A DNA stretch of 34,076 bases, the filler included, from an uncultured virus (IMG/VR IMGVR_UViG_2049941000_000254) (Duplodnaviria > Heunggongvirae > Uroviricota > Caudoviricetes). It is 4 parts of one record of this genome, joined end to end, with 100 filler letters (N's around TTAATTAATTAA, not from the genome) between each part and the next. Parts side by side here need not be neighbours in the genome. Positions count along the whole stretch, not along the records: positions 1 to 21,352 come from IMGVR_UViG_2049941000_000254; 3 more parts are not named here. One strand, given 5' to 3'. Below are positions 5,268 to 34,076 of this stretch, one piece after another. Position 1 is the stretch's first letter. Each line of letters begins with the position of its first letter. The notes beneath the pieces were generated by a model. It saw only the letters and a program-made list of their open reading frames with translations. It was not told the DNA's origin and did not search any database. The position numbers were made by a program, and so were the translations under genes.

Positions 5268-5273
5268 GTTCAA

Positions 5274-5302
5274 AATATAGCAAAGCCCCGTCGCGTTGGC
5301 AA
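5274..5302 (-). promoter_or_regulatory. promoter (leaderless class) overlapping a hairpin
   Basis: TTGCCA-N17-TATATT-N6-ATG; CCCTGTTGC-caac-GCGACGGGG hairpin spans the -35. Confidence 0.7.
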
Positions 5303-7474: not shown

Positions 7475-7687
7475 TTAGATTTCAGTGTCCAGCCATTCGC
7501 CGAAACGGCGGGCCAATTTGGCAACAACAATCACCGCAGTCAGGATGAATACGAATACCAGTTCGCCACCGAGCAGAAGTGTGTCGGCATGCTCGATTCC
7601 GAGGGCCTCCCCGCCAACGATTATGACGAAGATGAAGACCACCCAGACGGCGAGCGTGCTGAAGAATATAACGTCCTTGTGTTTCAT
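7475..7687 (-). CDS. small two-TM membrane protein whose ATG is the ATGAA motif abutting IscB element copy 1
   Basis: MKHKDVIFFSTLAVWVVFIFVIIVGG...; two hydrophobic stretches. Confidence 0.65.
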   Translation of the reverse strand: MKHKDVIFFSTLAVWVVFIFVIIVGGEALGIEHADTLLLGGELVFVFILTAVIVVAKLARRFGEWLDTEI

Positions 7688-8022
7688 AGAAATGTATGCA
7701 GTGCGGGAACTCACCCATCTTTAGTGGGTGAGGGAAGCACTGCTTCCTCCATTATGTTAGAGTTGTTGTGGTTGATTAAAATTAGATGTTTGTAGCTGAC
7801 TGAACCGGCAAGGAGATGCCCGTAAATATCCGAGAGCGAGAAGTAACCCGACTGTCTACGTGCCTTCACGAAGCAAGGTCGTCCGGCATAAGCCACGGAA
7901 TCCATCAGTCTATATCCATGTACCTCCCGAGGTGCCTGATTGTTCTTCCGGATGCCACCATTGAGTATGGATGCCTTGTGAATCTGCCTGTTGTTGACAC
8001 GCAGCTTTCTGATAATCCAGTA
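7688..8022 (-). mobile_element. iscB: IscB element copy 1: 3' end of iscB plus terminal hairpin; remainder in N gap
   Basis: YWIIRKLRVNNRQIHKASIL...EEAVLPSPTKDG* nearly identical to C-terminus of 10526-11839; CTCACCCACTAAAGATGGGTGAG hairpin. Confidence 0.9.
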
Positions 8023-8368
8023 NNNNNNNNNNNNNNNNNNNNNNNNNNNNNNNNNNNNNNNNNNNNNNNNNNNNNNNNNNNNNNNNNNNNNNNNNNNNNN
8101 NNNNNNNNNNNNNNNNNNNNNNNNNNNNNNNNNNNNNNNNNNNNNNNNNNNNNNNNNNNNNNNNNNNNNNNNNNNNNNNNNNNNNNNNNNNNNNNNNNNN
8201 NNNNNNNNNNNNNNNNNNNNNNNNNNNNNNNNNNNNNNNNNNNNNNNNNNNNNNNNNNNNNNNNNNNNNNNNNNNNNNNNNNNNNNNNNNNNNNNNNNNN
8301 NNNNNNNNNNNNNNNNNNNNNNNNNNNNNATTTCCACCAAAGAATAAACTTCTTTCAGGAGGTTCCAG

Positions 8369-8929
8369 ATGGACGATACAGAACAGCTAGAAGTCGAAGT
8401 CGAAGTCGATACCGAAGAACGAATCATCAGGCTGACCGGGGAAATTACGGAGGAGTCAGCCGACAAGTGCATCAGGTCCCTCCACGAACTGTGTAATGAG
8501 CCCGGAGAGATAACGATGGTTATTTGCAGTGACGGTGGCTCCCCTGCCGAGGGATTCCGCATCATCGATGCAATGGCAATAGCTCGTACAAAGGAATGCC
8601 CGGTGAACACTGTAGTATCCGGCAAGGCAAGTTCAATGGGTGCCATAATTTTCTGCGCCGGAGTTCATCGGACGATCTACAGGCATGCCAGGATAATGAT
8701 CCACCCCGCCTACTTCACCGACGACAGCGGTGGCATCACTAGCCGCAACGGCGCGATGAACATGGTGCTTGAAATGGATTACTTCAACTCTCTTTTCATA
8801 AAACTGCTATCGAACATGTCCATCCCGCCCGATTTGCTTGACAGGATGATGCACGAGGATGTCTATATAGTCGCGGACGATGCCATAAAGTACGGCATTG
8901 CCCATGAGTTCGAAACCGAGATAATCTAG
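8369..8929 (+). CDS. clpP: ClpP-like serine protease
   Basis: ICSDGGS (cf. INSPGGS), GKASSMGA (catalytic Ser), RIMIHP (His), EDVY (Asp), DAIKYGIA. Confidence 0.85.
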   Translation: MDDTEQLEVEVEVDTEERIIRLTGEITEESADKCIRSLHELCNEPGEITMVICSDGGSPAEGFRIIDAMAIARTKECPVNTVVSGKASSMGAIIFCAGVHRTIYRHARIMIHPAYFTDDSGGITSRNGAMNMVLEMDYFNSLFIKLLSNMSIPPDLLDRMMHEDVYIVADDAIKYGIAHEFETEII

Positions 8930-9592: not shown

Positions 9593-9898
9593 TCACCTCA
9601 CTTCAAATGGTTCTGGGCGTAAAGGCTTTATCCACTTGCATGCAACCACCTTGTTCGGTTCAGACATGCCCGGGTACTTTTCCTTCCAGTCAAATGTAAC
9701 TTTATATTGCAATCTTGTCTCGTGACTTCCGTTGGTAATCAGAACTGTGGAAGTGCCTGCCTTACGATTGTTGACGATCTTTCCGCTATGGTAACCCTTG
9801 GCTTCCAGTTCTTTCAGCAGGACATCGAAATCCTTGCCTACCATATTTGCTGCCGCTAGTTCGCAACTCATGTCGATTGCTTCTTCCGTTTCGCTCAT
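9593..9898 (-). CDS. hypothetical protein
   Basis: ATGA overlap with upstream gene, GGAGG SD. Confidence 0.65.
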   Translation of the reverse strand: MSETEEAIDMSCELAAANMVGKDFDVLLKELEAKGYHSGKIVNNRKAGTSTVLITNGSHETRLQYKVTFDWKEKYPGMSEPNKVVACKWIKPLRPEPFEVR

Positions 9899-10128
9899 TT
9901 TTGATCCTCCATCAAACGCTTAAAGAGTTCAAGGTTCTTGATGCTTTCCCTGTAATTCGCATTCAGCAAAGCGGTCGCATCCATTTCCGCCTGCGTAACA
10001 TAATCTGGATAACCGTCATTTGATTTCATACGCTTGTCGCGTAGGCGCAATGGTACCGAGTTGTCTCTCAGTCGCTTGCGGAACTCCTCGATTGCGTTAT
10101 CTATGTCTTCTATATCCTTCTTCGCCAT
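9895..10128 (-). CDS. hypothetical protein
   Basis: TAATG stop/start overlap; MAKKDIEDIDNAIEEF... Confidence 0.6.
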   Translation of the reverse strand: MAKKDIEDIDNAIEEFRKRLRDNSVPLRLRDKRMKSNDGYPDYVTQAEMDATALLNANYRESIKNLELFKRLMEDQK

Positions 10129-10529
10129 TATTTCATCCCGCACATTCTGTCGATAACATCACGCCTCATGCCGTACTTTTGTGCAATGTCGTACCAGCGG
10201 CCACGGGTGGTACTGCATAGCCGATAAGGACCTATACGTTCTTCCGAATAAACAAACTTGAACATGTTGTTTCCAATCGGCTTCACTATGGCCATCTGTC
10301 CATCGGGTGCAACTTCGAAACCGTGGTCAATCATGTCGAGCTTCAGTTGGTGTAATGTTTTCGGGTTGTCGGCATATCCGAACAGCAGGGCAATCCGGAC
10401 GCTAGGCATACACCCTATGAGCAAGCATTTCGTAGGAACGACATGAACCTTGGTCATCAGGCGTTCACGGATACCCATGAGGAACTTGCACACGATTACG
10501 GTGTAAATAATTTTGGAAATAATCTTCAT
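10128..10529 (-). CDS. hypothetical protein; distal part of the gene interrupted by IscB copy 2 (first 5 codons at 12123-12137)
   Basis: starts at the ATGAA abutting the element; joins in frame to MSDVI on the other flank. Confidence 0.7.
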   Translation of the reverse strand: MKIISKIIYTVIVCKFLMGIRERLMTKVHVVPTKCLLIGCMPSVRIALLFGYADNPKTLHQLKLDMIDHGFEVAPDGQMAIVKPIGNNMFKFVYSEERIGPYRLCSTTRGRWYDIAQKYGMRRDVIDRMCGMK

Positions 10530-11839
10530 ATAAATGTATGCAGTGCGGAAACTAACCCATCTTTAGTGGGTGAGAGGAGCACTGCTTCCTCCATTATGTT
10601 GGAGTTGTTATGGCTAATTAAGTTAAGATGCTTATAGTTCACCGAACCAGCAAGGACATGCCCGGAAATATCCGATAGCGAGAAGTATCCCGACTGTCTT
10701 CGGCCATTCACGAAGCAAGGTCTTTCGGCATAAACCACGGAATCCATTAGTCTATATCCATGTACCTCTCGAGGTGCCTGGTTGTTCTTCCGGATTCCAC
10801 CCTTGATGATAGATGCCTTGTGGAGCTGCCTGTTGTTGGAACGAAGCTTGCGGATAATCCAGTAATGCCAGTTGGACTCGGCACCCGGATTACCACTGAT
10901 GCAGCGGGCATCAATCGCATGTTCCTTCGGAAGGCCTGCCTTGATGCGGGTATGCTTAGTGAGGTAGCCGTACGTCTTGTGGCAAGCGATGATATCACCG
11001 AACAGTTCTTTAAGTCGAACGAATACCGACTTCCGCATGATGCCCATCACTGCCGCATCCCTAAAGGAAGTCCCGCGCCTGGGATTCGTGGGGAGTTCGA
11101 TTTCGCCACGGTGATACTTCGCATGACATTCCGAGCACAGGGTGATGAAGTTGTTAGGTGCATCTCCGCCTGTCTTCCTGCTCTCGATGTGGTGGACATG
11201 CAGCTTATTGTCCTTGGACTTGCCCTTGCAGCACTGGCATTTATGTCCATCCCGGAACAACACGTATTCCCTTACGTTAGAAAATCCGAGTTGTTCTCCC
11301 TTCTGGTAGTCGGTCCCCTGAGGCAATGGAAGCCCCTGTTCCTGGGCCTTTAGTAGCTGGGTATCGAACTGTGCAGTCTCGACCGTTATCTTCTTGATAG
11401 GCAAGAACTTGCATATCTTCCGAATCCAGTAGATATGGCAATCCACCTTCTGCCGTATAGAAGGTGCAATCCACCCCGGCTTCTTGGAGCGGGTCCTGTT
11501 CAGGAACCTTGGCTTGCGGTAGCGGGTTTTCCTGTTCCTTCTGGTCCGACGGAACTCCCTTCGCGTGGAGAGCTTCTCCACGATATCCGACCTTAAAAGC
11601 AGTTCTGCCTCGAAAAGTACCTTTTTCTTTGTAGTCGCGGAGAAGCCTACATGCTTCGTCCCCGCGTCTACGCCTAGACTGACCTCCTGCACGCCGTTCG
11701 GCGTGTCGTAAGCAAGCTGGATTGTGAATGGACGGTAATCGACAACGACTGCATGACCTTTCCCGAGCAGACGGCGGACCCTGCCGTACCTGGTGGTAGG
11801 CATCAGAGGCTTGCCGTATTTGTTCAGTATATAGACCAT
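10526..11839 (-). CDS. iscB: IscB RNA-guided endonuclease (PLMP, RuvC, bridge helix, HNH)
   Basis: KPLMPT; RuvC-I LGVDAG; RREFRRTRRNRKTRYRKPRF; RuvC-II TVETA; HNH CQCC...HVHH...N..TLC..CH; RuvC-III HAIDA; catalytic residues look intact. Confidence 0.97.
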   Translation of the reverse strand: MVYILNKYGKPLMPTTRYGRVRRLLGKGHAVVVDYRPFTIQLAYDTPNGVQEVSLGVDAGTKHVGFSATTKKKVLFEAELLLRSDIVEKLSTRREFRRTRRNRKTRYRKPRFLNRTRSKKPGWIAPSIRQKVDCHIYWIRKICKFLPIKKITVETAQFDTQLLKAQEQGLPLPQGTDYQKGEQLGFSNVREYVLFRDGHKCQCCKGKSKDNKLHVHHIESRKTGGDAPNNFITLCSECHAKYHRGEIELPTNPRRGTSFRDAAVMGIMRKSVFVRLKELFGDIIACHKTYGYLTKHTRIKAGLPKEHAIDARCISGNPGAESNWHYWIIRKLRSNNRQLHKASIIKGGIRKNNQAPREVHGYRLMDSVVYAERPCFVNGRRQSGYFSLSDISGHVLAGSVNYKHLNLISHNNSNIMEEAVLLSPTKDGLVSALHTFI

Positions 11840-12122
11840 CTAGTCATCATCCTTTTATTTTAACCTAACTTAATAGGTAATGCAGAGCTTTCGCTCTGTG
11901 GGTGGTCATCGACAATGTTAGGAAGGCTTGTCGTGCCCGCAGCACTGTCCCTACCCATCAGGACTGTTTAACCACAAGCGGCAGGGCGGGGGACTTGACC
12001 GTACATCCCAGGGTGTCGTGACCTTCCTAACGTAGTTCAGGGATTACTCCCTTCACTGAGTCTAATCAACTATGAGCCTGAGTTACCTCAAACTCACGGG
12101 TTTTAGCCCGTGGGTAGTTGAT
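10530..12122 (-). mobile_element. complete IscB/omegaRNA IS200/IS605-superfamily element (copy 2), no TnpA, no target duplication
   Basis: ends defined by comparing copies: starts ATCAACTACCCACGGGCTAAA, ends hairpin...ATTTAT then ATGAA. Confidence 0.9.
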
Positions 12123-12140
12123 GATTACGTCTGACATTGT
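11855..12140 (-). ncRNA. omegaRNA (HEARO-like) of copy 2, 5' guide from flank ~12123-12140
   Basis: TCAACTACCCACGGGCTAAAACCCGTG hairpin, GTTGATTAGACTCAG, CTACGTTA, CATTGTCGATG motifs directly upstream of iscB; exact ends inferred. Confidence 0.9.
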
Positions 12141-12160
12141 GTTTCCTCGTTTATACTGCA

Positions 12161-12189
12161 AATGTAGCAAATAAAAGTATGCCCGGCAA
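12161..12189 (-). promoter_or_regulatory. promoter (leadered class) now reading into the omegaRNA guide
   Basis: TTGCCG-N17-TACATT, then GAGGA SD and ATG at 12137. Confidence 0.7.
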
Positions 12190-12590: not shown

Positions 12591-13079
12591 CGTGCCGTAA
12601 GTAAGCTGGATTGTGAATGGACGGTAATCGACAACTACCGCACAACCTTTCCTGAGCAGACGGCGGACCCTGCCGTACCGTGTGGTAGGCATCAGAGGTT
12701 CGCCGTATTTGTTCAGTACATAGACCATCTAGTCGTTATCCTTTGTTTTTTGAACCTAACTTAATAGGTAATGCAGAGCTTTCGCTCTGTNNNNNNNNNN
12801 NNNNNNNNNNNNNNNNNNNNNNNNNNNNNNNNNNNNNNNNNNNNNNNNNNNNNNNNNNNNNNNNNNNNNNNNNNNNNNNNNNNNNNNNNNNNNNNNNNNN
12901 NNNNNNNNNNNNNNNNNNNNNNNNNNNNNNNNNNNNNNNNNNNNNNNNNNNNNNNNNNNNNNNNNNNNNNNNNNNNNNNNNNNNNNNNNNNNNNNNNNNN
13001 NNNNNNNNNNNNNNGTTCTCAGCAATTTGTTGTTCTCCTTGTTTCAAACTCACGGGTATTTAGCCCGTGGGTAGTTGAT
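12591..13079 (-). mobile_element. iscB: IscB element copy 3: 5' end, omegaRNA (mostly N) and iscB N-terminus (ATG 12728); rest lost at 10-N gap
   Basis: [25 protein letters not shown]...; ATCAACTACCCACGGGCTAAATACCCGTGAG end. Confidence 0.9.
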
Positions 13080-13591
13080 CGTTTAATCATGCTCCCAAGG
13101 TCCTTGATAAGTTCCATGTCATCGAATATATCCACGTCATGCCGTCTGTCCCTGAACCACTTGCTGTAATTTATAAGCCGTTCCGGATCGTCGGAGGTCT
13201 TCCACCCGTCTCCGGTGTGCGCCTCGAAGGAAACCGAACCGTTGGTAAACAGTATTCGGCCATAGAGCTGACCGCCATGGAAAAAATCGACTTCAAGGTC
13301 GCTTGTCTTGACTTCTTCCCATAACTGGCAGATATATTCCATCGTTTCGACATTTTTCAGCAGGGCGTTGAATTCCTTCTCCGCGGCAGGGAACGCCTGT
13401 ATCTTGGTAAGTTCCGGATCACCCTTGAAACGGTAGAGCTTGGTGAACACCACGCCGGCGGGGCCGCAGAACAGTTCACCTAGCGGCACATCCTTCCACC
13501 GAAGTTCCACGCAGGAACTGTCGCTGTCATCGACGGTGTTGCTGGTGTACGCAGCCTTCCACTTGTCACAATATATCTTCTTGTAATTCAT
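13019..13591 (-). CDS. hypothetical protein; last ~19 codons derive from IscB copy 3 end
   Basis: ...GSMIKR|STTHGLNTREF reads into the element. Confidence 0.7.
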   Translation of the reverse strand: MNYKKIYCDKWKAAYTSNTVDDSDSSCVELRWKDVPLGELFCGPAGVVFTKLYRFKGDPELTKIQAFPAAEKEFNALLKNVETMEYICQLWEEVKTSDLEVDFFHGGQLYGRILFTNGSVSFEAHTGDGWKTSDDPERLINYSKWFRDRRHDVDIFDDMELIKDLGSMIKRSTTHGLNTREFETRRTTNC

Positions 13592-19602: not shown

Positions 19603-19634
19603 CCGTTGACTGAAATCTACTCAAACTTACTCAC
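19603..19634 (-). mobile_element. probable right end of the TnpB element, IS607-like
   Basis: short direct repeats GTAAGTTTG/GTAGATTTC then ...TCAACGG ending in GG; shared with 18912-18936. Confidence 0.55.
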
Positions 19635-21224
19635 GGTAAGCCTTTCGTGATTTCCTATGGTCCGTTTGAACAGGCCATCGCAACGGCATTTTTCTAGGCA
19701 CTTCCTTACTTGCCACCTGAACAAGCTCTTTGGCTGGAAGCACCTATATCCGCTATCCCCTGCTATTTCTAGCAGGTACCCTCTTAACACGGTCGAGGTA
19801 AGGCGGAACTTGATGTTAATTGCACTGTTGTGGTCTGCGTTATCTGTATGCAAGCAGTCCACACACTTAAATTCTTCCTGTGTCTGACGGTTGCGGTCAT
19901 CTATACCGCCGCATTCCGGACACATCTTCGAGGTATATTCTGGCTGGATGAGCGAGAAGCCCAGCCCATAATGTTCCGATATATGTTCTACATCGTCTTT
20001 TAACGATGACAGTCCAATTCGTAGATGCAGCCGTCCTAGGTTAAATCCTTTCTTGTCATCGGCATTTAGTTTGCTTCCCTGGAATCCGGTAAGGTTCTCC
20101 ATCACGATGTGCTTGAACCCACGTTCGGCAAGGTCCTTGCACATTGCAGCTATTCTACGCTTGTTGGATTCGTTCAGCTTCAATGTGATGGATTCTATCC
20201 GCTTCCTGTCCTTACGGGAAATCTTGAAGGCGTCATGTTCCTCGCCTTCCTTGAACCGGGCATCGTAGTTCTTCTGCTTACGGTCGATCTTTAGCAGTTC
20301 ATCTTCAAATTCGGCAATCAGCTCATCATCATGGGGAATGAACTCACCGGTGCTCAACGCGAACATGTTGTGCTTGGAATTGACATCTATCCCGACCGTA
20401 TTCTCATCGGTTATTTCCTCATCGCTCTTGTAACGGTAGCCGTCCCTTGCTAGTACTACATGGATGTTCTTTCCTCGGATCACGATTGTATAGGACGTAT
20501 CCGTCCCGTTGCAGTATCTTTGCAATGACTTGTGGTATGCCTTGTTGTACTTGAACGGCATACATAGTGTGTTCTTGCTGTCGCCACGGTAACCTTGGCT
20601 GAACCAGTCCCAGGAAATTTCGATAAAGTACTCGAACTTTCCAGTCTCATTCCTTCTGGCATCTACGATAGGACGCGTGATTCGACTGCGACCACTGAAT
20701 GTAAGCGATTCAAAGGTAATCTTTCCGCGCTTCTCGTATTCAGAAAATACAGCAGTCCTCCTTGATAGAGCCAACCGTATAAGGCGGTCAAATCCAAACT
20801 TTCTAATCTTTTCCAAGATGGTGCGGTAGAACTTCTGCTTTGTTGCATCAACTGTAGGAATAGTAGATTCAAGCCAATAGACGGATTCTTCCTTACCGTA
20901 TCGCGCAAGCCAAGTCAGCACCTTGGTAAGTTCTGTCTTCTTTGGATGAACTTCGATGGATTTCAGCTCGCCTTTCTTGTGCCCCTTGGCATTTATCTTG
21001 TAGAATGAAGGGACAAGTTCATCGACCAGTTCGAACTCAATCTTCTTGCGGATTGCATCGAACCGGAGCCGATAGGCTCTCCACACATCCTCGATCGCCT
21101 TCTTCAAGTAATGACTTGATAACCGAGTATTGAATGTAGGGTTGAAGAACTTGAACGTTTCGAACTTGCTCATATCCTGGAAGCCGAGCATATCCGAGAA
21201 GAACACTTCGGATATATCGTTACG
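19617..21224 (-). CDS. tnpB: long TnpB-family RNA-guided nuclease (>=535 aa; N-terminus lost in 10-N gap)
   Basis: RuvC-I VGIDVN, RuvC-II IVMENL, YTSKMCPECG...FKCVDC zinc finger, RuvC-III NADHNSAINI. Confidence 0.9.
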   Translation of the reverse strand, partial: RNDISEVFFSDMLGFQDMSKFETFKFFNPTFNTRLSSHYLKKAIEDVWRAYRLRFDAIRKKIEFELVDELVPSFYKINAKGHKKGELKSIEVHPKKTELTKVLTWLARYGKEESVYWLESTIPTVDATKQKFYRTILEKIRKFGFDRLIRLALSRRTAVFSEYEKRGKITFESLTFSGRSRITRPIVDARRNETGKFEYFIEISWDWFSQGYRGDSKNTLCMPFKYNKAYHKSLQRYCNGTDTSYTIVIRGKNIHVVLARDGYRYKSDEEITDENTVGIDVNSKHNMFALSTGEFIPHDDELIAEFEDELLKIDRKQKNYDARFKEGEEHDAFKISRKDRKRIESITLKLNESNKRRIAAMCKDLAERGFKHIVMENLTGFQGSKLNADDKKGFNLGRLHLRIGLSSLKDDVEHISEHYGLGFSLIQPEYTSKMCPECGGIDDRNRQTQEEFKCVDCLHTDNADHNSAINIKFRLTSTVLRGYLLEIAGDSGYRCFQPKSLFRWQVRKCLEKCRCDGLFKRTIGNHERLTVSKFE

Positions 21225-21352
21225 NNNNNNNNNNGGATGCTGCATTTCGCAGGTATCCGGATCAAACGCCATATCCTTGTCATACGGGTCGCGCCAGGTG
21301 ATTGCCATCAGGTCGGCATCGAACTTGATGTCCCTTATAGTCTTCGGGGCAC

Positions 21353-21597: not shown

Positions 21598-21624
21598 ACT
21601 GTGTCCTCCTTTGCTTGTATTACA

Positions 21625-21653
21625 AATGTAGCAAATGGTGGAACAGGTGGCAA
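21625..21653 (-). promoter_or_regulatory. promoter (leadered class)
   Basis: TTGCCA-N17-TACATT. Confidence 0.75.
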
Positions 21654-21690: not shown

Positions 21691-21766
21691 AAAAGTGTCC
21701 GAATTAACGAGTCGGACTCCCGGACCGCGTAGTTCTGGTGAACTACGGCCACCATCCACGATTTAT

Positions 21767-22107
21767 ATAAATCCTTTGTCGAGGCGGAAACTCACCCATG
21801 TTTAGTGGGCGAGAGGATCCCCGACATTGGCCCTTTTGGGGAACCCGAACTTAATCGGGTAATGCAGGGGTTGCCCCCTGTGGGTGGTCATCGACAATGT
21901 TAGGGAGGCTTGTCATGAACGCCACACTGTCCCTACCCATCAGGACTGTTTAATGACGCTCGGCAGGGCGGGGGACTTGACCGTACATCCCGAGGTGCCG
22001 TGACCTTCCTAACGTAGTTCAAGGGATTACTCCCTTTCACTGAGTCTAATCAACTATGAGTCTGAGTTACCTCAAACTCACGGGTTTTTAGCCCGTGGGT
22101 AGTTGAT
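21767..22107 (-). mobile_element. non-autonomous omegaRNA-only mini-element (copy 4): both ends plus full scaffold, no iscB
   Basis: 21845-22107 aligns to 11862-12122; terminal hairpin CTCGCCCACTAAACATGGGTGAG follows directly; flanked by ATAAA. Confidence 0.9.
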
Positions 22108-22476: not shown

Positions 22477-22516
22477 TTCAAATTCCTTGGTTAATTGTTG
22501 AGTTGTTCGTATCCCT

Positions 22517-22545
22517 AATGTAGCAAATCACTTGCTAGTTGGCAA
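22517..22545 (-). promoter_or_regulatory. promoter (leadered class)
   Basis: TTGCCA-N17-TACATT. Confidence 0.75.
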
Positions 22546-24041: not shown

Positions 24042-24368
24042 GTCATAAATATAGCAAATATTTTGCAACTTTGGGTTATTTTTCCGATATTTACGAAATA
24101 AAAACATCATGTAGCAGCAGCACAGGAAGGCAAATCCGTAGTTTGCATACAAAGGATACTGCCATACGCCGGTAGTCAGGTTGTTATCGAGCACAAACGA
24201 GCCACAGAATATGTTTGCGAAAAAAGACATCAAGACGAAAAGAAACGATGTGCCTTCTGTGGACTTGTCCATGTGGATCTTTATGATTACCGGAATGTTG
24301 ACTATTGCGAATAGAAAAGAGCCGATTATGCCTAAGTAAGGTGCAAGAAAATGCAGTATATCTTTCAT
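24042..24368 (-). CDS. PQ-loop/SemiSWEET-like 3-TM membrane protein; no stop before HU
   Basis: LGIIGSFLFAIVNIPVIIKIHMDKSTEGTS matches the PQ-loop pattern (PV instead of PQ); PLYANY in TM3. Confidence 0.75.
24048..24068 (-). promoter_or_regulatory. extended -10 promoter for leaderless HU; -35 mis-spaced
   Basis: TTTGC-TATATT-N6-ATG; TTGCAA only 9 nt upstream of the -10. Confidence 0.55.
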
Positions 24369-25228: not shown

Positions 25229-25717
25229 TCACTTGGCTATGCTTTTTCCCTTGCTGATATGTGCGCAATAGAAATAGATACATCGGGCGAGTGATTCGGC
25301 ACGCTGCTGATGGTCGTTTAAGATATGGTTGACTAAATATACATATGCTTGCATAAAGCAACTTAACGGATTCTCAAAATATGTCGGGAATTTTCCCTCA
25401 TTAAATGCTTCGCTATCTTCCTTGGATGGGCCAAGTTCCGAGAGGAACGGATATTCAAGCGCGATGTTTTTAGCATTCATCCGAAAAACTACGTGTGGAA
25501 CGCCGTTCGTGTCTTTATACGAATACTCAAACACATCGTCGGTTTGCTTTTCATCGCATCCTATTTTTTGAAGCACATCGAGGATGGGCTTAACGCTTTC
25601 ATCGAATGCCTCGCCGTATCGGTCATTCCAGGCATCGAACCAGCCCTTATGTTCAGATTTCCGTTTATCTTTAACGGTTTTCACGGTGTCATAGATCTTG
25701 TATGGTTTGGTTGTCAT
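25229..25717 (-). CDS. hypothetical protein (MTTKPYKIYDTVK...)
   Basis: GAGGA SD before ATG 25717. Confidence 0.65.
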   Translation of the reverse strand: MTTKPYKIYDTVKTVKDKRKSEHKGWFDAWNDRYGEAFDESVKPILDVLQKIGCDEKQTDDVFEYSYKDTNGVPHVVFRMNAKNIALEYPFLSELGPSKEDSEAFNEGKFPTYFENPLSCFMQAYVYLVNHILNDHQQRAESLARCIYFYCAHISKGKSIAK

Positions 25718-25737
25718 GTTAGGTTCCTCTTTAAAAG

Positions 25738-26028
25738 TTAAGCTGCATTTTTCAGCAGGTCGTCGATTTCCATTGTCCACCGGCACCAGGCAGGCACAAT
25801 TCCGGCACCGGTTCCAGCCTTCACCACGCAGATACGGTTGACCTCGCGTGGGCGTGCCCAGTCAAACTCGCAGTCGGTAAGGAACACTATGCCATCATAA
25901 GTCTTGTGTTCCAGTTCAAGCCGATTAAGCACACACTGCGGATTTGTCATGCCACCCCCGAACACGTCCGTATTGAATACGTCCTTCGGGTCATGCAGGA
26001 TTTCGGAGCATACGTCATCCCAATAGCA
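25738..26028 (-). CDS. second, diverged copy of the VWA protein C-terminus (rest in gap)
   Basis: DVFGGGMTNPQCVL...YDGIVFLTDCEFDW matches 26102-26390. Confidence 0.8.
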   Translation of the reverse strand, partial: CYWDDVCSEILHDPKDVFNTDVFGGGMTNPQCVLNRLELEHKTYDGIVFLTDCEFDWARPREVNRICVVKAGTGAGIVPAWCRWTMEIDDLLKNAA

Positions 26029-26101
26029 NNNNNNNNNNACTTTTCACAGTGTCATAGATCTTGTATTTCTTAGTTTCCATGTTGGGTTCCTCTTCTAACA
26101 G

Positions 26102-27595
26102 TTAAACCACGTTCAGCAGCAGGTCGTCCATTCCCATGTGCCACAGGCACCACGCCGGTATCTCTCCGTTTCTGTTTCCCATCTTCACTATACAGATTTT
26201 CCCTATATCGCGGGGACGGGTCCAGTCGAACTCGCAGTCCGTCAGGTACACGATGCCGTCATAAACCAAGTGTTCCTTTTCTAGGCGGTCAAGCACGCAC
26301 TGCGGGTTTGTCATGCCCCCGCCGAACACGTCCGTCTCGAACGCGGTCTTGGGGTCATGTATGATTTCGGAGCAGATGCCGTCCCAGTAACACAGGTCGA
26401 GCGCGGCATCGCCGATGAAGTTGTTCACCGTCTCGAAGCACTTGTTCACCAGATTCATGCTGAGCATTGAACCTGAAACGTCCACCGCGAACAGTATCTT
26501 CGGCTTGTCCTTCTTGCGCACATGGCCTGGCGCGATTGTGCCGTACCGGCGCAACACCAGGTTCGGCATGGACCAGGTCTGGCGCGTCGATGCGCCGAAG
26601 TTACTCGTCATGAACATCCTGAACACGCTTGCCGCGTTCACATGGACACGGTTGGCCTCCTGTATTGCAAGGGGAACCTTCCCAGACATACCACCTTGAC
26701 CACTAGCGAACTGGGCCGAGGCCACATCGCGGATGTTGTCGGAAGCGTCCGAGTCGTTACCCCAGTCCTTTATGTCGGCAGGGGCGCTGTTCGGGTCGAA
26801 CATCTGCTGGATGGCCTGGTAGGCTTCACTCTTCTCGCCATCTCCTTCGCCGGAACTGTCGGCCTGTCCTTCACCGGAACCTTCCCCTTCGCTTTCTTCG
26901 CCGTCGGAGTCATCTGATTCCCCGTTGCTGCCACCGCCGCTCTGGTTCTCTCCGTCTTCCTCGTCTTCGTCATCGCCACCGGATTCTCCCTCGTGGTTCG
27001 GACTGCCACCTTCTTCATCGCCTTCATCGCTCTCGTCGCTGTCCCCCTGGCCACCGTTGTCCTGGCCGCCGTCCGGGTTCTCCTCCTCAGTCTCGTTCTT
27101 GGATTCCTCCTGGGCCTGCATGAGCAGGTCGAACACCTTTTCAAGTGTGAGGTCCTTGACCGGATCAAAGCCAGCAGCGCCGAACTTGTCGGCATATGCC
27201 CAGATGCTAGGGAACAACTGGCCCACGATTGCGGAGTTGTCCCCCGCAGTCGTATTGACCACGTTTCGGGCATATTCGTAGACCACCAGGTCACTTGCGA
27301 GCCTGAACATGGCCTCCGGCATCTTTACACGGGTATCGCAATGGTGCAGGGCTATTCTGAGACAGTTGGCGTACACGACGGCACCTAGCAGGGACGGTTC
27401 CATCGCGTTGACGAACCAGTCACTGTATTCGAGATACGGTTGTCCATCGGTGCAACCGACTCTCATCGTCACCGACTTGTCGCTCGTCATGCGCTTTTCG
27501 AGCATGATGTAGAACCCGAGCAGGATAGGCGCCCGGTTGGACATCAGTGTCGCGGCATGGGACAGCTTGTCCTGTATTTCCGTCTCGTCCAGCAT
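26102..27595 (-). CDS. DUF2201-like protein: metallopeptidase-like N-domain, acidic linker, VWA domain
   Basis: MIDAS DVSGS, GGGMT, YLTD; D/E/G/S-rich linker; near a MoxR ATPase. Confidence 0.85.
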   Translation of the reverse strand: MLDETEIQDKLSHAATLMSNRAPILLGFYIMLEKRMTSDKSVTMRVGCTDGQPYLEYSDWFVNAMEPSLLGAVVYANCLRIALHHCDTRVKMPEAMFRLASDLVVYEYARNVVNTTAGDNSAIVGQLFPSIWAYADKFGAAGFDPVKDLTLEKVFDLLMQAQEESKNETEEENPDGGQDNGGQGDSDESDEGDEEGGSPNHEGESGGDDEDEEDGENQSGGGSNGESDDSDGEESEGEGSGEGQADSSGEGDGEKSEAYQAIQQMFDPNSAPADIKDWGNDSDASDNIRDVASAQFASGQGGMSGKVPLAIQEANRVHVNAASVFRMFMTSNFGASTRQTWSMPNLVLRRYGTIAPGHVRKKDKPKILFAVDVSGSMLSMNLVNKCFETVNNFIGDAALDLCYWDGICSEIIHDPKTAFETDVFGGGMTNPQCVLDRLEKEHLVYDGIVYLTDCEFDWTRPRDIGKICIVKMGNRNGEIPAWCLWHMGMDDLLLNVV

Positions 27596-28503: not shown

Positions 28504-29206
28504 CCGATACCTCGATTGCATTGGTACATTTTTTCATAGCTTCATCAGAATCCTTTGCCATGACTGTAATGATTTCCTTGGTGAGATACCTGCCTACCTT
28601 GATAAGGTTCTTCCTTTCACTGCGCTTTCTGGACTTCAGTTCATCGGCATCAAGGTAACGGGTGACCTTGTATTCACGCTCATCACGATCATCCTGGAAC
28701 AGTCTAGTCATCTTGTTAAACTCTTCCTCGGTAATTTCTTTGAACTGCATATTTGCCAGCATATGCAGGTCGAGCCTGTAGTTAACCTTGTCGCCAAACA
28801 GGTCATAACAAGACATTTCAATATATCCGGAACCGGAACTAGTATTGACAGCACTGATATAAGATACGCACAGGAACTTCTTGACTGTTCGGGTAATCTG
28901 CTTGCCCCTATAATGGTAGAAATGCTCATTATACTCGCGTGAATAGATGGATACCGGGTCAACACTGATGAAAAACCCAGTATCATTGTATTCATCGTGA
29001 TATCCAATGACTTCCTTGTCAATCAGGATAAAAAACTTGCCCCGATACTTTTTGAAGAATCGGCCAACAAAGCGTTCGCGGTCGGATGACCAGTAGTTAT
29101 CCTTGGATTTAAACGTCTCGTACTTTTTGTTGATGAACAAGCTATGTGCTTCAAACTTATCAAGCACTCTCTTTACAGATTCTCTGTCAAACATATCATA
29201 TTTCAT
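28496..29206 (-). CDS. hypothetical protein, probable leaderless start
   Basis: TATATT-N6-ATG; 236 aa. Confidence 0.75.
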   Translation of the reverse strand: MKYDMFDRESVKRVLDKFEAHSLFINKKYETFKSKDNYWSSDRERFVGRFFKKYRGKFFILIDKEVIGYHDEYNDTGFFISVDPVSIYSREYNEHFYHYRGKQITRTVKKFLCVSYISAVNTSSGSGYIEMSCYDLFGDKVNYRLDLHMLANMQFKEITEEEFNKMTRLFQDDRDEREYKVTRYLDADELKSRKRSERKNLIKVGRYLTKEIITVMAKDSDEAMKKCTNAIEVSAC

Positions 29207-29212
29207 ACTGGG

Positions 29213-29253
29213 AATATAGCAAAAAAAGCCCCCCGTGGCAACGGGGAGCCTTC
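29213..29253 (-). promoter_or_regulatory. overlapping terminator and promoter
   Basis: GGCTCCCCG-TTGCCA-CGGGGGGC-T7-GC-TATATT: -35 is the hairpin loop, spacer 17. Confidence 0.75.
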
Positions 29254-29278
29254 ATGNNNNNNNNNNGACGCGCCAAAC

Positions 29279-29455
29279 TCAGTCGTACCAGTAGTCCGGC
29301 TTCTTCGAGATGCCGGCAAACCGGTCAAAATCGGATGACAAGAAGTTATCCTTCTTCTTAATCTGTTCGTATTTCTCGTTTCTAGCGTCATCGTGGTTAT
29401 CGAAAGTATCGATTACCCGCTTTACGATTTCTTTGTTAAACATGTCATATTTCAT
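29279..29455 (-). CDS. short chimeric ORF (paralog of the 28496-29206 N-terminus + SKKPDYWYD tail)
   Basis: MKYDMFNKEIVKRVIDTF...DFDRFAGI-SKKPDYWYD*. Confidence 0.6.
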   Translation of the reverse strand: MKYDMFNKEIVKRVIDTFDNHDDARNEKYEQIKKKDNFLSSDFDRFAGISKKPDYWYD

Positions 29456-29461
29456 ATTCTG

Positions 29462-29501
29462 AATATAGCAAAAAAGCGCCCCGTGGCAACGGGACGCCTT
29501 C
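29462..29501 (-). promoter_or_regulatory. overlapping terminator and promoter (second copy)
   Basis: GGCGTCCCG-TTGCCA-CGGGGCGC-T6-GC-TATATT-N6-ATG, spacer 16. Confidence 0.7.
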
Positions 29502-30850: not shown

Positions 30851-30968
30851 CTTTTAGTTCTTCGTTTTCGCGCTTGAGGCTCTCGTACTCCTCAAGCGGT
30901 ATTTCGCACGTCATGATTGGCGGGTGTTCAGCGCCGGGGTGAGTCGGGTAGTGTTTTGTGTTGCTCAT
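30851..30968 (-). CDS. hypothetical protein N-terminus (MSNTKHYPTHPGAEHPPIMTCEIPLEEYESLKREN), truncated
   Basis: ATGA overlap, AAGGAG SD. Confidence 0.55.
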
Positions 30969-31276
30969 GCTGCTTGCTTCTCCTTTTTGCGTTGTCTGTA
31001 GTCCCTGTTCCACTTGGCTTTCCTCACCTTGTAGATGGGGTCGTCCTTGTGTCGTTGGCGATAATCTCTGTTGTGCTTCTTTACGGATTCGGGATGCTCC
31101 TTTTTCCATGCACGGGAAAGGGCTATGAAGTGCTGCGGGTCTTCGTCATAGTGCGCCTTGAAGATGCGCTTCTGTGCTGCCTTTTTGTTTCGGACACGGG
31201 CGTCAGCGATAAGGCACGTTACGACCGTGCCGTGCATGGCGTTTCGCTCCGCTATCATTGATTCCCAATCTTGCAT
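30965..31276 (-). CDS. basic hypothetical protein
   Basis: TAATG overlap start MQDWESMIAER... Confidence 0.55.
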   Translation of the reverse strand: MQDWESMIAERNAMHGTVVTCLIADARVRNKKAAQKRIFKAHYDEDPQHFIALSRAWKKEHPESVKKHNRDYRQRHKDDPIYKVRKAKWNRDYRQRKKEKQAA

Positions 31277-31404
31277 TACTTGCTCTCCGTTATCTTGTCC
31301 TTGAATCCGTTTGCGCAATTATCGCACAGGGGAACGAAGCCTCGTGCGTACTTGAGCCGGTATTCACTGCACTTGCGTTCGCGTCTGCACCACCAGCACT
31401 TCAT
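31276..31404 (-). CDS. 42-aa Cys-rich (CxxC...CxxC) protein, not in ORF track
   Basis: MKCWWCRRERKCSEYRLKYARGFVPLCDNCANGFKDKITESK*, AAGGAG SD, overlaps both neighbours. Confidence 0.55.
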   Translation of the reverse strand: MKCWWCRRERKCSEYRLKYARGFVPLCDNCANGFKDKITESK

Positions 31405-31732
31405 CACTTTATCTCCTTTTTAAAAACCACTACCATTGAAGGGAACGGTGCCGAGTTTTCTTGATTTCCGAATTTTAGGCGACCACGCACAAATCGGATT
31501 TCCGCTTTCCCATAGATGTATTCGTGAAACCATTTCGTGTCCGTCCTTGCGGGAAGTAGCATCACGNNNNNNNNNNGTCCTGTTCCTTTGTGAAGAAACG
31601 GGCGCATTTATGGTTGTTTTCGTCAGCGCACACGTCAAGCTGAAATTTGAATTCATTGTTCAACTTGTCAAAAAAATCTTGAGGCGTTGCCCATTTATCC
31701 GTTTTTGACGAGAACATCAAATCGTTATTCAT
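31404..31732 (-). CDS. dam: phage DNA N6-adenine methyltransferase (Dam family); central part in gap
   Basis: MFSSKTDKWATPQDFFDKLNNEFKFQLDVCA...VMLLPARTDTKWFHEYI...EIRFVRGRLKFG...APFPS. Confidence 0.9.
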
Positions 31733-32145
31733 GCTATCTCCTTGATAGATTTTTCCATTTTGTCAAGCGCATCTGTAATCAGCTTATCAGTTACCTTGTA
31801 TCCCCTGCATACGTCACGCACGAAGTGTTCCACCCTCAGCATGACGTTCGTAGCGCATTCGTGTACATCGAAGTTCGTGCTGTACTTCTGCATTACTGGG
31901 CTTCCCCTTCCGGCGGTCACGTCCTGTACATCGCATTCGTAATAGACTTTAGGATAGACAAGGGCGCACTTGATTCTCACGCACGGATAAATCTTTTTGC
32001 CCGTTCTCGCCTCAAATTCCATCATGTTTTCGGTAAGTACATCGCAGTCGTTTGCTCGTGCGTTTTTCCATGACGTGCAAAGATTCGGGCGATTTGTGTC
32101 GCTGGCTCTGTCAAGGTCTGGCAAAAGTGAGAGTTGGTCGGTCAT
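31729..32145 (-). CDS. hypothetical protein
   Basis: GGGAG SD, MTDQLSLL...; ATGA overlaps. Confidence 0.6.
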   Translation of the reverse strand: MTDQLSLLPDLDRASDTNRPNLCTSWKNARANDCDVLTENMMEFEARTGKKIYPCVRIKCALVYPKVYYECDVQDVTAGRGSPVMQKYSTNFDVHECATNVMLRVEHFVRDVCRGYKVTDKLITDALDKMEKSIKEIA

Positions 32146-32276
32146 ATAACATCTCCCTTCAATTTTTGGCGACGTTTGAACGGGATTTCCTTCGATAGCT
32201 CCTGAATGGCGTGCCACGGGTTTATCCAACGGTTCACCATAAGGATGAGCTGAATTTTCTTAGGGCNNNNNNNNNN

Positions 32277-32552
32277 GGCTCCGCATTGCGCGAACTCATG
32301 CAACGCTTGCGCCTTGTCGCCTTTCTGGTAGGCGTTGAAAGCCTCGGCTACTTCTTCCATAAGGACGTTGTCGGCGTACTCCTTCGCCATTGCATTACGT
32401 GCCTTGATTCGGCTCTCGGACTCTGCCCAGCTCACGTGGGAATCCGGGTCCAAGACGGCGTCGCAGAACTTGGGGTGCTTGCGACACGCGGCCTTGTGTT
32501 CGTCGATAATTCTGAACAAAAAGCCTTTCAGCTTTTCTGCATCTTCGCTCAT
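32277..32552 (-). CDS. MazG-like (all-alpha NTP pyrophosphatase) protein; 3' end in gap
   Basis: VLMEEVAEA......ALHEFAQCGA pattern. Confidence 0.55.
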
Positions 32553-32802
32553 TTTTCCTCCTTCGGAGCCGACGGAAGCGGCATCCAGTGCGTGACTGGA
32601 ATTTGAAATTCTTTAAGTATTGGCGAGTAATAGCAGCATTGAAGCATTCCTTTTTCGTTAATTACAAGGAACTTTATATCTTCGGTCGGCTTCTCGTCTG
32701 GGAACTTTCGCCATCGTTGCGCTTCTTTCAGTCCCGCAATCTCCGCATCTTTCGCCGCAATCACCTTGTCGGCTTCGGACTTGAGGTAGACTTGGGCTTC
32801 TT
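32549..32802 (-). CDS. DUF551-like phage protein (5' end at gap)
   Basis: RWRKFPDEKP...VTHWMPLPSAP. Confidence 0.75.
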
Positions 32803-32812
32803 NNNNNNNNNN

Positions 32813-33117
32813 ATTGGGTTATTCGGTGTAAACATTTTTCGGTTCCTAACGTAATTCGGATTGAAACCAGCGAGAAGCTCTGCAATGTACCGATAAGCCT
32901 TTGCTCGTGAGAACCACAACACATGTTTTGTGGCGCGGAGCTGTTGGGCACCGTTGAATTTAATTCGTTCGTCGATACGTTGCCTACTGTCGTATTCCTT
33001 GCAGCACTTTACCAAACGTTCGTTTTCGGCCTTGAGTTCCGCGTTCTCGCGCTTTAGGCTCTCGTACTCCTCAAGCGGTATCTCGCACGTCATTATCGGC
33101 GGGTGCGACTGGTTAGG
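32813..33117 (-). CDS. coiled-coil hypothetical protein fragment
   Basis: HPPIMTCEIPLEEYESLKRENAELKAENERL... Confidence 0.55.
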
Positions 33118-33568: not shown

Positions 33569-34076
33569 TTATGCGTTGTACTTTTCCGCTTCCTCTTTTG
33601 TGCGGAAGAAGTGGAACCCGCTCGTACATTCAATGTTGTACATGAGGTTGAAGTCCTCGATTTCGATGTCCTGCATGATCCGGTACTCAAAGTTATTGTC
33701 GTATGAGCTGTGCAATACTTCGTTCTGTCCGCCCATGTCGATGATGCGCGCCTTGTTCGTCCTGCACTTGCTTCCGTTGATGCAGAACACGATGGCACCC
33801 GCAGGAATCGTGGCGGTTATCACTACGCCCTCTTTCGTTTTCTTGTAGCCGGTCATCGGCTCTTTGAGAATTTGCCCGAGACGGATCTTTTCTTTTTCTT
33901 CGAGATTTGCGCGTTCGAGATTTGCGCCGTAGAGATTTGCGCCGTAGAGAATTGCGCCGTCGAGATTTGCGCCGTAGAGATTTGCGCCGTCGAGATTTGC
34001 GCCGTAGAGAATTGCGCCGTAGAGAATTGCGCCGTAGAGATTTGCGCGTTCGAGATTTGCGCCGTAGAGATTTGCG
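33569..34076 (-). CDS. pentapeptide-repeat protein with DUF5758 C-terminal domain; starts beyond window
   Basis: A(N/I)L(YG/DG/ER) repeats then GYKK...IPAGA...KCRTNKA...SSYD..F.Y...ECTSGFHFF. Confidence 0.88.
33901..34076. repeat. 15-bp tandem repeat encoding pentapeptides
   Basis: GAGATTTGCGCCGTA-type units. Confidence 0.95.

Follow-up and report, generated by a model that had tools for sequence, protein, structure and literature searches.

We analysed a 34,076-nucleotide (nt) stretch of an uncultured Caudoviricetes virus (IMG/VR IMGVR_UViG_2049941000_000254), hereafter the window, and in it an IscB/omegaRNA (HEARO) element that sits directly before the start codon of a phage gene. The window is a scaffold with 31 N runs, most of its long open reading frames (ORFs) lie on the minus strand, and the stretch is present in sequencing runs labelled bovine gut metagenome. 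Self-comparison and reading of the sequence revealed four copies of the element, of which copy 2 is complete. Copy 2, at 10530-12122 on the minus strand, is a non-autonomous element of the ISC type in the IS200/IS605 superfamily, 1,593 nt long, inserted between N and ATGAA. Its parts and its site are as follows.

10128..10529, minus strand: host gene of copy 2, 133 amino acids (aa), no known family
10525..10529, minus strand: target, or transposon-adjacent motif, ATGAA, which includes the native start codon of the host gene
10526..11839, minus strand: iscB ORF, 437 aa, with RRXRR and HNH matches and homology to solved IscB structures
10530..10585, minus strand: 3' terminal nested hairpin and 20-nt linker (left end, LE, in the transposase's sense); element end at 10530; fold z -4.7
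10553..10555, minus strand: TTA codon in place of the iscB stop TGA of relatives, within the 3' arm of the inner terminal hairpin
11840..12122, minus strand: omegaRNA scaffold (HEARO), from Rfam match and fold; the element's 5' end (right end, RE, in the transposase's sense) is at 12122
12123..12142, minus strand: 5' flank giving the guide part of the omegaRNA, about 16-20 nt (assumed length); contains a Shine-Dalgarno (SD)-like GAGGAA and an upstream in-frame ATG at 12137
12159..12170, minus strand: TTGCTACATTTG, a promoter-like motif 37 nt before the 5' end of copy 2

The protein of copy 2 matched RRXRR (Pfam PF14239, 3e-59) and HNH (PF01844, 3e-8), the arrangement of a RuvC domain with an inserted HNH, and it matched solved IscB structures at E values of 2e-39 to 7e-38. 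Homology with OgeuIscB (PDB 7utn, 7xht) and the other solved IscBs extends over the RuvC, bridge and HNH parts, although at 437 aa the protein is shorter than OgeuIscB (about 495 aa). When the alignment was read by eye, catalytic-looking residues were found as D (GVDAG), E (VETAQ), HNH (HVHH...N...H) and H..D (HAIDARC). Judged by its sequence, the copy 2 IscB is probably an intact RNA-guided nuclease.

The HEARO model (RF02033) matched 11898-12122 with 124 bits, against a gathering score of 83, over its full length (model positions 1-211), and the scaffold adjoins iscB on its upstream side and reaches the element boundary. The 5' end carries a hairpin, CACGGG-CTAAAA-CCCGTG (fold z -3.3). At the 3' end a hairpin, CACCCA-CTAAAGA-TGGGTG, followed by the linker is common to the 3' ends of the window copies and is kept in 103 survey matches. 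The hairpins at both ends are subterminal and share CTAAA loops, with z from -3.3 to -6.8 (-6.8 at the 3' end of copy 1). The element has no terminal inverted repeats, and no target duplication was seen in the flanks of 40 sites. All 5' ends of window copies start with ATCAAC; among the other copies and 40 related insertions whose 5' end could be placed, the beginning reads [A/G/T]T[C/G]AAC...CCCA..., in about two thirds of them exactly ATCAAC. The 102 window ORFs of 85 aa or more include no Y1 (TnpA) transposase, and no group I intron was found across the window, where Rfam at gathering thresholds gave just two HEARO matches. Copy 2 is an ordinary member of the ISC class with an N/ATGA target, and the geometry alone, a 5' flank followed by ATGAA, would fit RNA-guided cleavage of the empty site.

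Deleting 10530-12122 brings GAGGAAacacaATG TCA GAC GTA ATC in frame against ATG AAG ATT, exactly the join described in an earlier reading of this DNA made without database searches (the sequence-only reading), and the GAGGAA-ATG at 12137, 15 nt upstream of copy 2, is present as well. MSDVI- as the native N-terminus of the interrupted gene did not hold up, since none of the homologues carries MSDVI. Among the database matches of the host protein, 51 of 67 are exactly 133 aa long and none exceeds 138 aa, and the N-terminus coincides with the Met of the motif in all 16 sequences inspected and all 21 aligned. Because the homologues begin at this Met, the ATG of the motif is the native start of the 133-aa gene. 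The junction at 10529/10530 is bridged by contigs from two studies, with 0 differences (probably the source sample) and 13 differences, and also by the JGI contig L032. Separately, a 6.9-kb contig from another study matches 9600-10529 at about 98%, ends its match exactly at 10529 and then diverges from the window; this could be an empty or differently occupied allele.

The family was surveyed by its 3' hairpin pattern, with 103 matches in total, of which the window has 3, viral contigs 12 and metagenome contigs 88. Seven rows were dropped (L015, L026, L091, L106, L076 (unrelated tails), L042 and L086), and the remaining 96 gave 66 sites after downstream flanks at least 70% alike had been merged. 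The conserved tail stands directly before ATG[A/G] at 42 independent sites and before ATAA at 24. The motif finder was restricted to ATG[A/G] or ATAA, and the reality of the motif rests on its fixed distance from the conserved tail; the bases after ATGA vary between sites. For HEARO, an integration site 'ATGA or GTGA' is said to have been given by Weinberg in 2009. The linkers split the family into four subfamilies.

Subfamily A: full length, about 1.6 kb; tail ...CATACATTTCT then ATGR; 19 sites
Subfamily B: mini-elements of 340-360 nt; tail ...GGCAAAGGATTTAT then ATGA; 16 sites, one ATAAA
Subfamily C: full length; tail ...GCTAGTTTTT then ATGA; 7 sites
Subfamily D: tail ...CGCTACATT then ATAAA; 23 sites; 5' end ATGAAC, not ATCAAC

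The single motif ATRAA proposed from the window is therefore replaced by two specificities, ATGA(A) in subfamilies A-C and ATAAA in subfamily D. The 5' end of subfamily D itself (for example in L009, L016 and L019) carries ATGAA, the target of subfamilies A-C. In L086 an A-type tail is followed by AAGGAAAG...ATG and not by ATG directly; here AAGGAAAGAACAAATG is an SD-like stretch with an ATG 13 nt further on, which is either an atypical target or a rearranged junction.

At most sites of the family the ATG of the motif is the start codon of a co-oriented gene, and the element lies between the ribosome-binding region and that ATG. In-silico empty sites were compared with the other ATGR/ATAA sites of the same loci on both strands. 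At 36 of 42 sites the ORF that begins at the motif ATG reaches 50 codons or stays open to the contig end, compared with 1603 of 4156 background ATGR sites (39%, p 4.9e-10); the count becomes 36/44 when L042 and L086 are taken as non-starts. When the motif ATG was in addition required to be the first after an in-frame stop, the figures were 18/32 and 493/4083 (p 3.3e-9). The 5' flank has an SD-like motif at a distance of 5-17 nt from the junction in 15 of 32 cases, versus 760 of 4310 in the background (p 1.4e-4), and this excess indicates that many elements lie between a native ribosome-binding site and its ATG. Sites at which the motif TGA is the stop of an upstream ORF of 50 codons or more were not in excess (4/31 against 240/2145, 11%). 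Of the two preferences proposed for ATGAA insertions, landing on gene starts is supported and enrichment at ATGA overlaps is not.

A greedy gene model, which is crude, was applied to the 27 well-flanked ATG-type sites and called 13 of them starts, 14 'genic' and none intergenic non-start; the background counts for these three classes were 146, 2702 and 409. With genic ATGR sites set aside, all 13 insertions are at starts, compared with 146 of 555 background sites (26%, p 3e-8). Nine of the 14 'genic' sites are probably starts that were mis-modelled: they have a short in-frame ATG further upstream, like the window site, or are covered by nothing but an ORF on the opposite strand. At ATAAA sites the TAA closes an upstream ORF in 1 of 12 cases, with a background of 142/1180, and we rejected the idea that this motif lands on stop codons. 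One of 12 ATAAA sites, versus 139 of 278 in the background (no p computed), lies inside an ORF open for at least 40 codons on both sides. The ATAAA subfamily lands in spacers rather than on stop codons.

The other copies and their host genes in the window are the following.

7475..7687, minus strand: 70-aa hydrophobic host gene of copy 1, opened by the ATG of ATGAA 7683-7687
7688..8022, minus strand: copy 1, the 3'-terminal 335 nt of an IscB element, 85% identical to copy 2 at the aa level
12591..13079, minus strand: copy 3, broken by N runs, 3' end unassembled
13079..13591, minus strand: host gene upstream of copy 3, 171 aa, whose last codon CGA spans the junction
21767..22107, minus strand: copy 4, a 341-nt mini-element with full omegaRNA and 3' end, without iscB; HEARO 127.6 bits

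Copy 1 has lost its 5' two thirds in the N run 8023-8329. It has its own stop at 7711-7713, then 23 nt, then the ATGAA at 7687-7683, so that the earlier description of a copy abutting a host ATG at 7687 agrees with both the sequence and the homologue lengths: 55 of 68 database matches of the host protein, which reads by eye as a two-transmembrane protein, are 70 aa long, which marks the native start. Three 79-aa gene calls (P0108, P0111 and P0116) begin with residues from a diverged element linker, and these linker-encoded N-termini indicate that the copy 1 site is occupied in diverged relatives. Calls of 72-73 aa (MKTM..., MNM...), whose short extension is not linker-encoded, may come from unoccupied alleles of the site. 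In a relative at this site, the metagenome locus L042, the linker is joined to the interior of the 70-aa gene; a deletion at a short TTAT/ATAT microhomology has removed the gene's ATG with the rest of its first 22 nt.

Copy 3 survives as its 5' end (13044-13079, 36 nt) and as the 3' end of the omegaRNA with the first 46 iscB codons (12591-12790). The host ORF reads across the junction as ...AAA CG/A at 13081-13079. Of 15 homologue matches three shorter fragments were left out, and the 12 aligned full-length homologues all end exactly at the junction residue. Copy 3 does lie at a stop codon, as had been suggested, with support limited to this copy. Copy 4 has the motif ATAAA at 21762-21766 and a tail with AAAGGA, and it occupies a non-coding spacer, with a stop codon on one side and, on the other, hairpins that look terminator-like by eye.

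The sequence-only reading had also noted that iscB of copy 2 lacks a stop of its own and terminates within the target ATGAA, which is what we observed. The gene ends ...TTT ATA TGA, and the TGA at 10528-10526 overlaps the host ATG at 10529-10527 as an ATGA stop/start overlap. Its further view, that borrowing a stop is a strategy of the element, did not survive comparison with relatives. Thirteen independent sites have an iscB ORF that is 300 codons or longer and finishes at the equivalent codon; this codon is TGA at 12 of them and TTA only at copy 2. In copy 1, L001 and L003 the iscB stop is a TGA situated 23 nt upstream of the motif, within the 3' arm of the inner hairpin. The change from TGA to TTA breaks a base pair of this hairpin and weakens it (-10.5 kcal/mol in copy 2 versus -14.7 in copy 1). 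The motif TGA is in the iscB frame at all 12 ATG-type sites of the 13, the thirteenth being an ATAAA site; since the linker is 20 nt long and the motif TGA is in frame, loss of the stop adds just 9 residues to IscB. Stop-borrowing in copy 2 is a single point mutation with a soft landing and no design of the family. At the viral locus L002 a near-duplicate of the host gene's first ~17 nt cuts iscB short at ...NIMETREL*, and the TAA of the truncated iscB overlaps the host ATG (TAATG), another route to a touching stop and start.

Contig L032 shares both the insertion of copy 2 and its TTA. Window and L032 differ by about 10% in iscB (synonymous divergence pS 0.25, ratio of nonsynonymous to synonymous divergence pN/pS 0.17) and in the host gene (pS 0.17), and they are identical only over ~120 nt where the element ends and ~45 nt where the gene begins. 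Because it occurs in two lineages at pS about 0.2 from each other, the TTA insertion is old. In the host gene, none of 36 family-invariant residues, defined over 20 other homologues, has changed between the two, compared with 33 of 97 variable ones (p 7e-6). The pN/pS of the downstream gene is 0.21 for copy 1 versus L094 and 0.18 for the mini-element pair L077/L085; the pair L044/L059 was excluded from the pooled value (out of register, 37% identity). Because element and gene have diverged to similar degrees, the insertions would be older than the lineage splits and the genes still functional. By these comparisons, purifying selection has continued to act on iscB and on the copy 2 host gene since the element inserted.

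Copy 4 and 16 related sites are mini-elements of 284-360 nt, which keep both ends and encode no protein. An SD-like motif is present in the tails of 15 of 17 mini-elements, versus 0 of 13 full-length elements. In the B-type tail it is AAAGGA, 5-6 nt before the host ATG, and several mini-elements have displaced a good native SD. In IS608 this linker has no known requirement for a fixed sequence.

Taken as a whole, the data are probably best explained by an ISC element that is parked before a start codon, leaves the ORF whole, and has its host gene translated by re-initiation. A host promoter-like motif upstream would drive one RNA comprising guide, scaffold, iscB and host gene. IscB would be translated from its own start, ribosomes would terminate at the hairpin TGA, or at the ATGA in copy 2, and those finishing iscB would restart at the host ATG; mini-elements, which have the omegaRNA and no iscB, would rely for the restart on the AAAGGA that they carry. 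A bolder version, in which the 3' end is a translation hand-over module that makes insertion polarity-neutral without splicing, seems to us rather doubtful; in it the in-frame TGA over the host ATG would be a backup stop for full-length copies, the AAAGGA of the minis would stand in for the host SD that they displaced, and the ATGA motif would itself be an adaptation to parking on the start codons of transcribed genes. Several points weigh against the re-initiation explanation. Translational coupling of iscB with the host gene is something we infer; the 23-nt gap of normal copies is long for termination-reinitiation, and their tails lack an SD-like motif. The 17 mini-elements are one lineage and the 12 in-frame tails are one lineage, each counting as one evolutionary observation. 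The argument from selection fails if two lineages separately acquired diverged elements at the same site. Start calls were ORF-based and heuristic, and L042 and L086 are not clean start-codon sites. The empty site of copy 2 was not recovered: scans of viral contigs with the host protein and tblastn and megablast searches of a phage collection gave no match, genome contigs yielded one 23-residue partial match of no use, and the joint 10529>12123 is absent from the contigs of four sequencing runs compared with the window.

Some of the same facts would follow if the motif and survivorship were all there is, with any ATGA being hit, ORF-sparing insertions persisting, no device for downstream translation, and the host gene either initiated independently on the AU-rich 3' linker or dispensable. 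We give this account a modest chance of being right. It fits a target of just 4-5 nt (site data; accessible part of PMC4810608), the lack of SD-like motifs in full-length tails and a stop overlap that arose as a one-off mutation, and it gains from two further points against re-initiation. About 5 of the 27 well-flanked sites are not starts (L084 on the upstream gene's stop, L071 nine codons before a stop, L043 and L058 within 5' parts of genes, and L088, which is unclear), and the overall pN/pS of the copy 2 host gene between window and L032 is 0.68, a weak constraint outside the invariant residues. It is harder to reconcile with starts making up 13 of 13 non-genic insertions, with the retention of every invariant residue of the host gene, and with AAAGGA at ideal spacing in mini-elements that displaced native SDs. 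Genomes alone fit both insertion bias and retention as the source of the start-codon excess. The complete lack of insertions at non-start intergenic ATGR hints at more than ORF avoidance, and a need for read-through transcription, as discussed in the available part of Meers 2023 (10.1101/2023.03.14.532601), could explain part of this intergenic shortfall.

Such a need is the core of another account, in which it is the element itself that profits from staying at start codons: with a guide encoded beyond the element boundary, the omegaRNA would depend on read-through transcription, which the 5' untranslated region (UTR) of an expressed co-oriented gene would supply. The part of Meers 2023 available to us gives both this argument and a bias to co-orientation with the upstream gene; the promoter-like motif upstream of copy 2 and the placement of copy 4 and the ATAAA subfamily in spacers, with 1 of 12 sites inside an ORF, agree with it. 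A need for a UTR leaves the base-exact placement at ATG unexplained, which the motif alone explains, and TAnnTTTG lies within 80 nt at just 4 of 44 sites. We regard this account as improbable by itself; it is compatible with re-initiation and does not exclude it. That the ATG is borne by the element, or that the junction is an assembly chimera of a repeat-rich scaffold, is almost certainly wrong. The window does contain 31 N runs and collapsed repeats, and similarity between copies extends through ATGAA, but homologues of two host genes start at the motif Met, the bases after ATGA differ from site to site, and contigs of two studies, as well as L032, span the junction.

The element has close counterparts among known systems. 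The N/ATGA target itself has been known since 2016, from ISC1-1_MA, ISC2-1_HM and ISC2-1_MS (Kapitonov, Makarova and Koonin 2016, PMC4810608, in the part accessible to us). As here, those elements are non-autonomous, about 1.3-1.7 kb long, with IscB as sole protein, subterminal hairpins, no target duplication and insertion directly upstream of ATGA; ATAA and ATCA targets are also recorded there for the partner IS605B element. The terms 'start codon' and 'initiation codon' have no occurrence in the accessible text of that paper. The present elements differ from the ISC elements described there in belonging to a rumen-phage lineage, in having subfamilies that share one 3' hairpin and omegaRNA-only minis, and in one stop moved into the target. 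The IscB of Geobacillus stearothermophilus and the survey of Meers 2023, in the portion at hand, likewise have the scaffold at the RE, the guide outside the boundary, the motif on the far side and most copies without tnpA; the motif is common to transposase and nuclease and elements are co-oriented with the upstream gene, and that portion does not place insertions on start codons. The motif here, ATGA(A), differs from the NWRRNA given for OgeuIscB in the source text accessible to us.

IStrons, which combine a group I intron with IS200/IS605 (Tourasse 2014, PMC4227781, accessible part), also make insertion harmless to the host gene. They splice from the mRNA, whereas here no intron was found and harm would be limited by position and re-initiation. 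The PATE/REP-like protein-less IS200/IS605 derivatives described in the accessible part of PMC4810608 keep both ends, as do copy 4 and the 16 related sites; the mini-elements here differ in keeping a complete omegaRNA and in a B-type tail with AAAGGA. In the accessible main texts of the IscB literature, including Meers 2023, PMC9755519, PMC13565253 and PMC4810608, supplements aside, we found no statement of start-codon seating or coupling. What is new is a rumen-phage lineage of four linked subfamilies, the tracing of a borrowed stop to a TGA>TTA mutant, SD-bearing omegaRNA-only minis, and evidence of selection on a pair of occupied alleles.

Cas9 descends from IscB/omegaRNA elements, whose natural history is still little documented. 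Should these elements usually sit at the base before a start codon, annotators could use their ends to predict true gene starts and the reverse, and the cost to dense phage genomes would be far below that of ordinary insertion sequences. There would also be a simple model, open to testing, of how 1.6 kb inserted between a ribosome-binding site and an ATG can be tolerated, through re-initiation after iscB or, in the minis, through an element-borne SD. The results also correct the tempting view of an element designed to borrow a stop codon.

An AUGGAGG is conserved in the 3' coding part of iscB, just 5' of the nested hairpin (10540-10595 and 7698-7753, minus strand), and formation of the hairpin could bring it within ~12 nt of the host AUG as a split ribosome-binding site. 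In RNA folds of the ends of copies 1 and 2 the start region pairs with the upstream AUGGAGG at an ensemble frequency of 0.06-0.10, which carries little weight. The promoter-like motif TTGCTAYATTTG has six matches in the window versus 0.27 expected, all on the minus (gene) strand and upstream of ORF starts.

401-412, 5272-5283, 12159-12170, 21623-21634, 22515-22526 and 24046-24057, minus strand: promoter-like motif matches, from a motif search

We take this motif to resemble a Bacteroidota-type -7 box (TAnnTTTG), and it would thereby give a clue to the host. The count of 4 in 44 sites given above led us to reject it as a general mark of insertion sites.

Most window ORFs have no family. Homologues of two local genes occur on contigs of 399-474 kb, which makes a very large phage likely. 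Just downstream of copy 4, a 563-aa ORF at 19617-21308 (minus strand), which runs over a 10-N gap, has a Cas12f1-like TNB domain (Pfam 1e-13) and PHROG 'transposase' matches; these matches identify it as a putative TnpB-type nuclease, a second kind of OMEGA element. On the opposite strand, directly after the N run of copy 1, an ORF at 8369-8926 (plus strand) encodes a ClpP-family protease (Pfam 7e-22), and its orientation may reflect a flipped scaffold piece or a real change of gene order. A call of 140 copies of 103 nt with 8-nt spacing at 1073-2200 was rejected as most likely an artefact, as it coincides with the N run 1097-1490. At 33870-34076 a 15-nt tandem repeat of at least 9 units, 90-100% alike, runs off the window end; it adjoins an ORF with a DUF5758 match and would encode a five-residue repeat. 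Three direct-repeat pairs (25678-26392, 29151-29482 and 30853-33105), 54-185 nt long and 76-89% alike, lie over gene starts and their upstream regions, which suggests small paralogous gene families in the phage.

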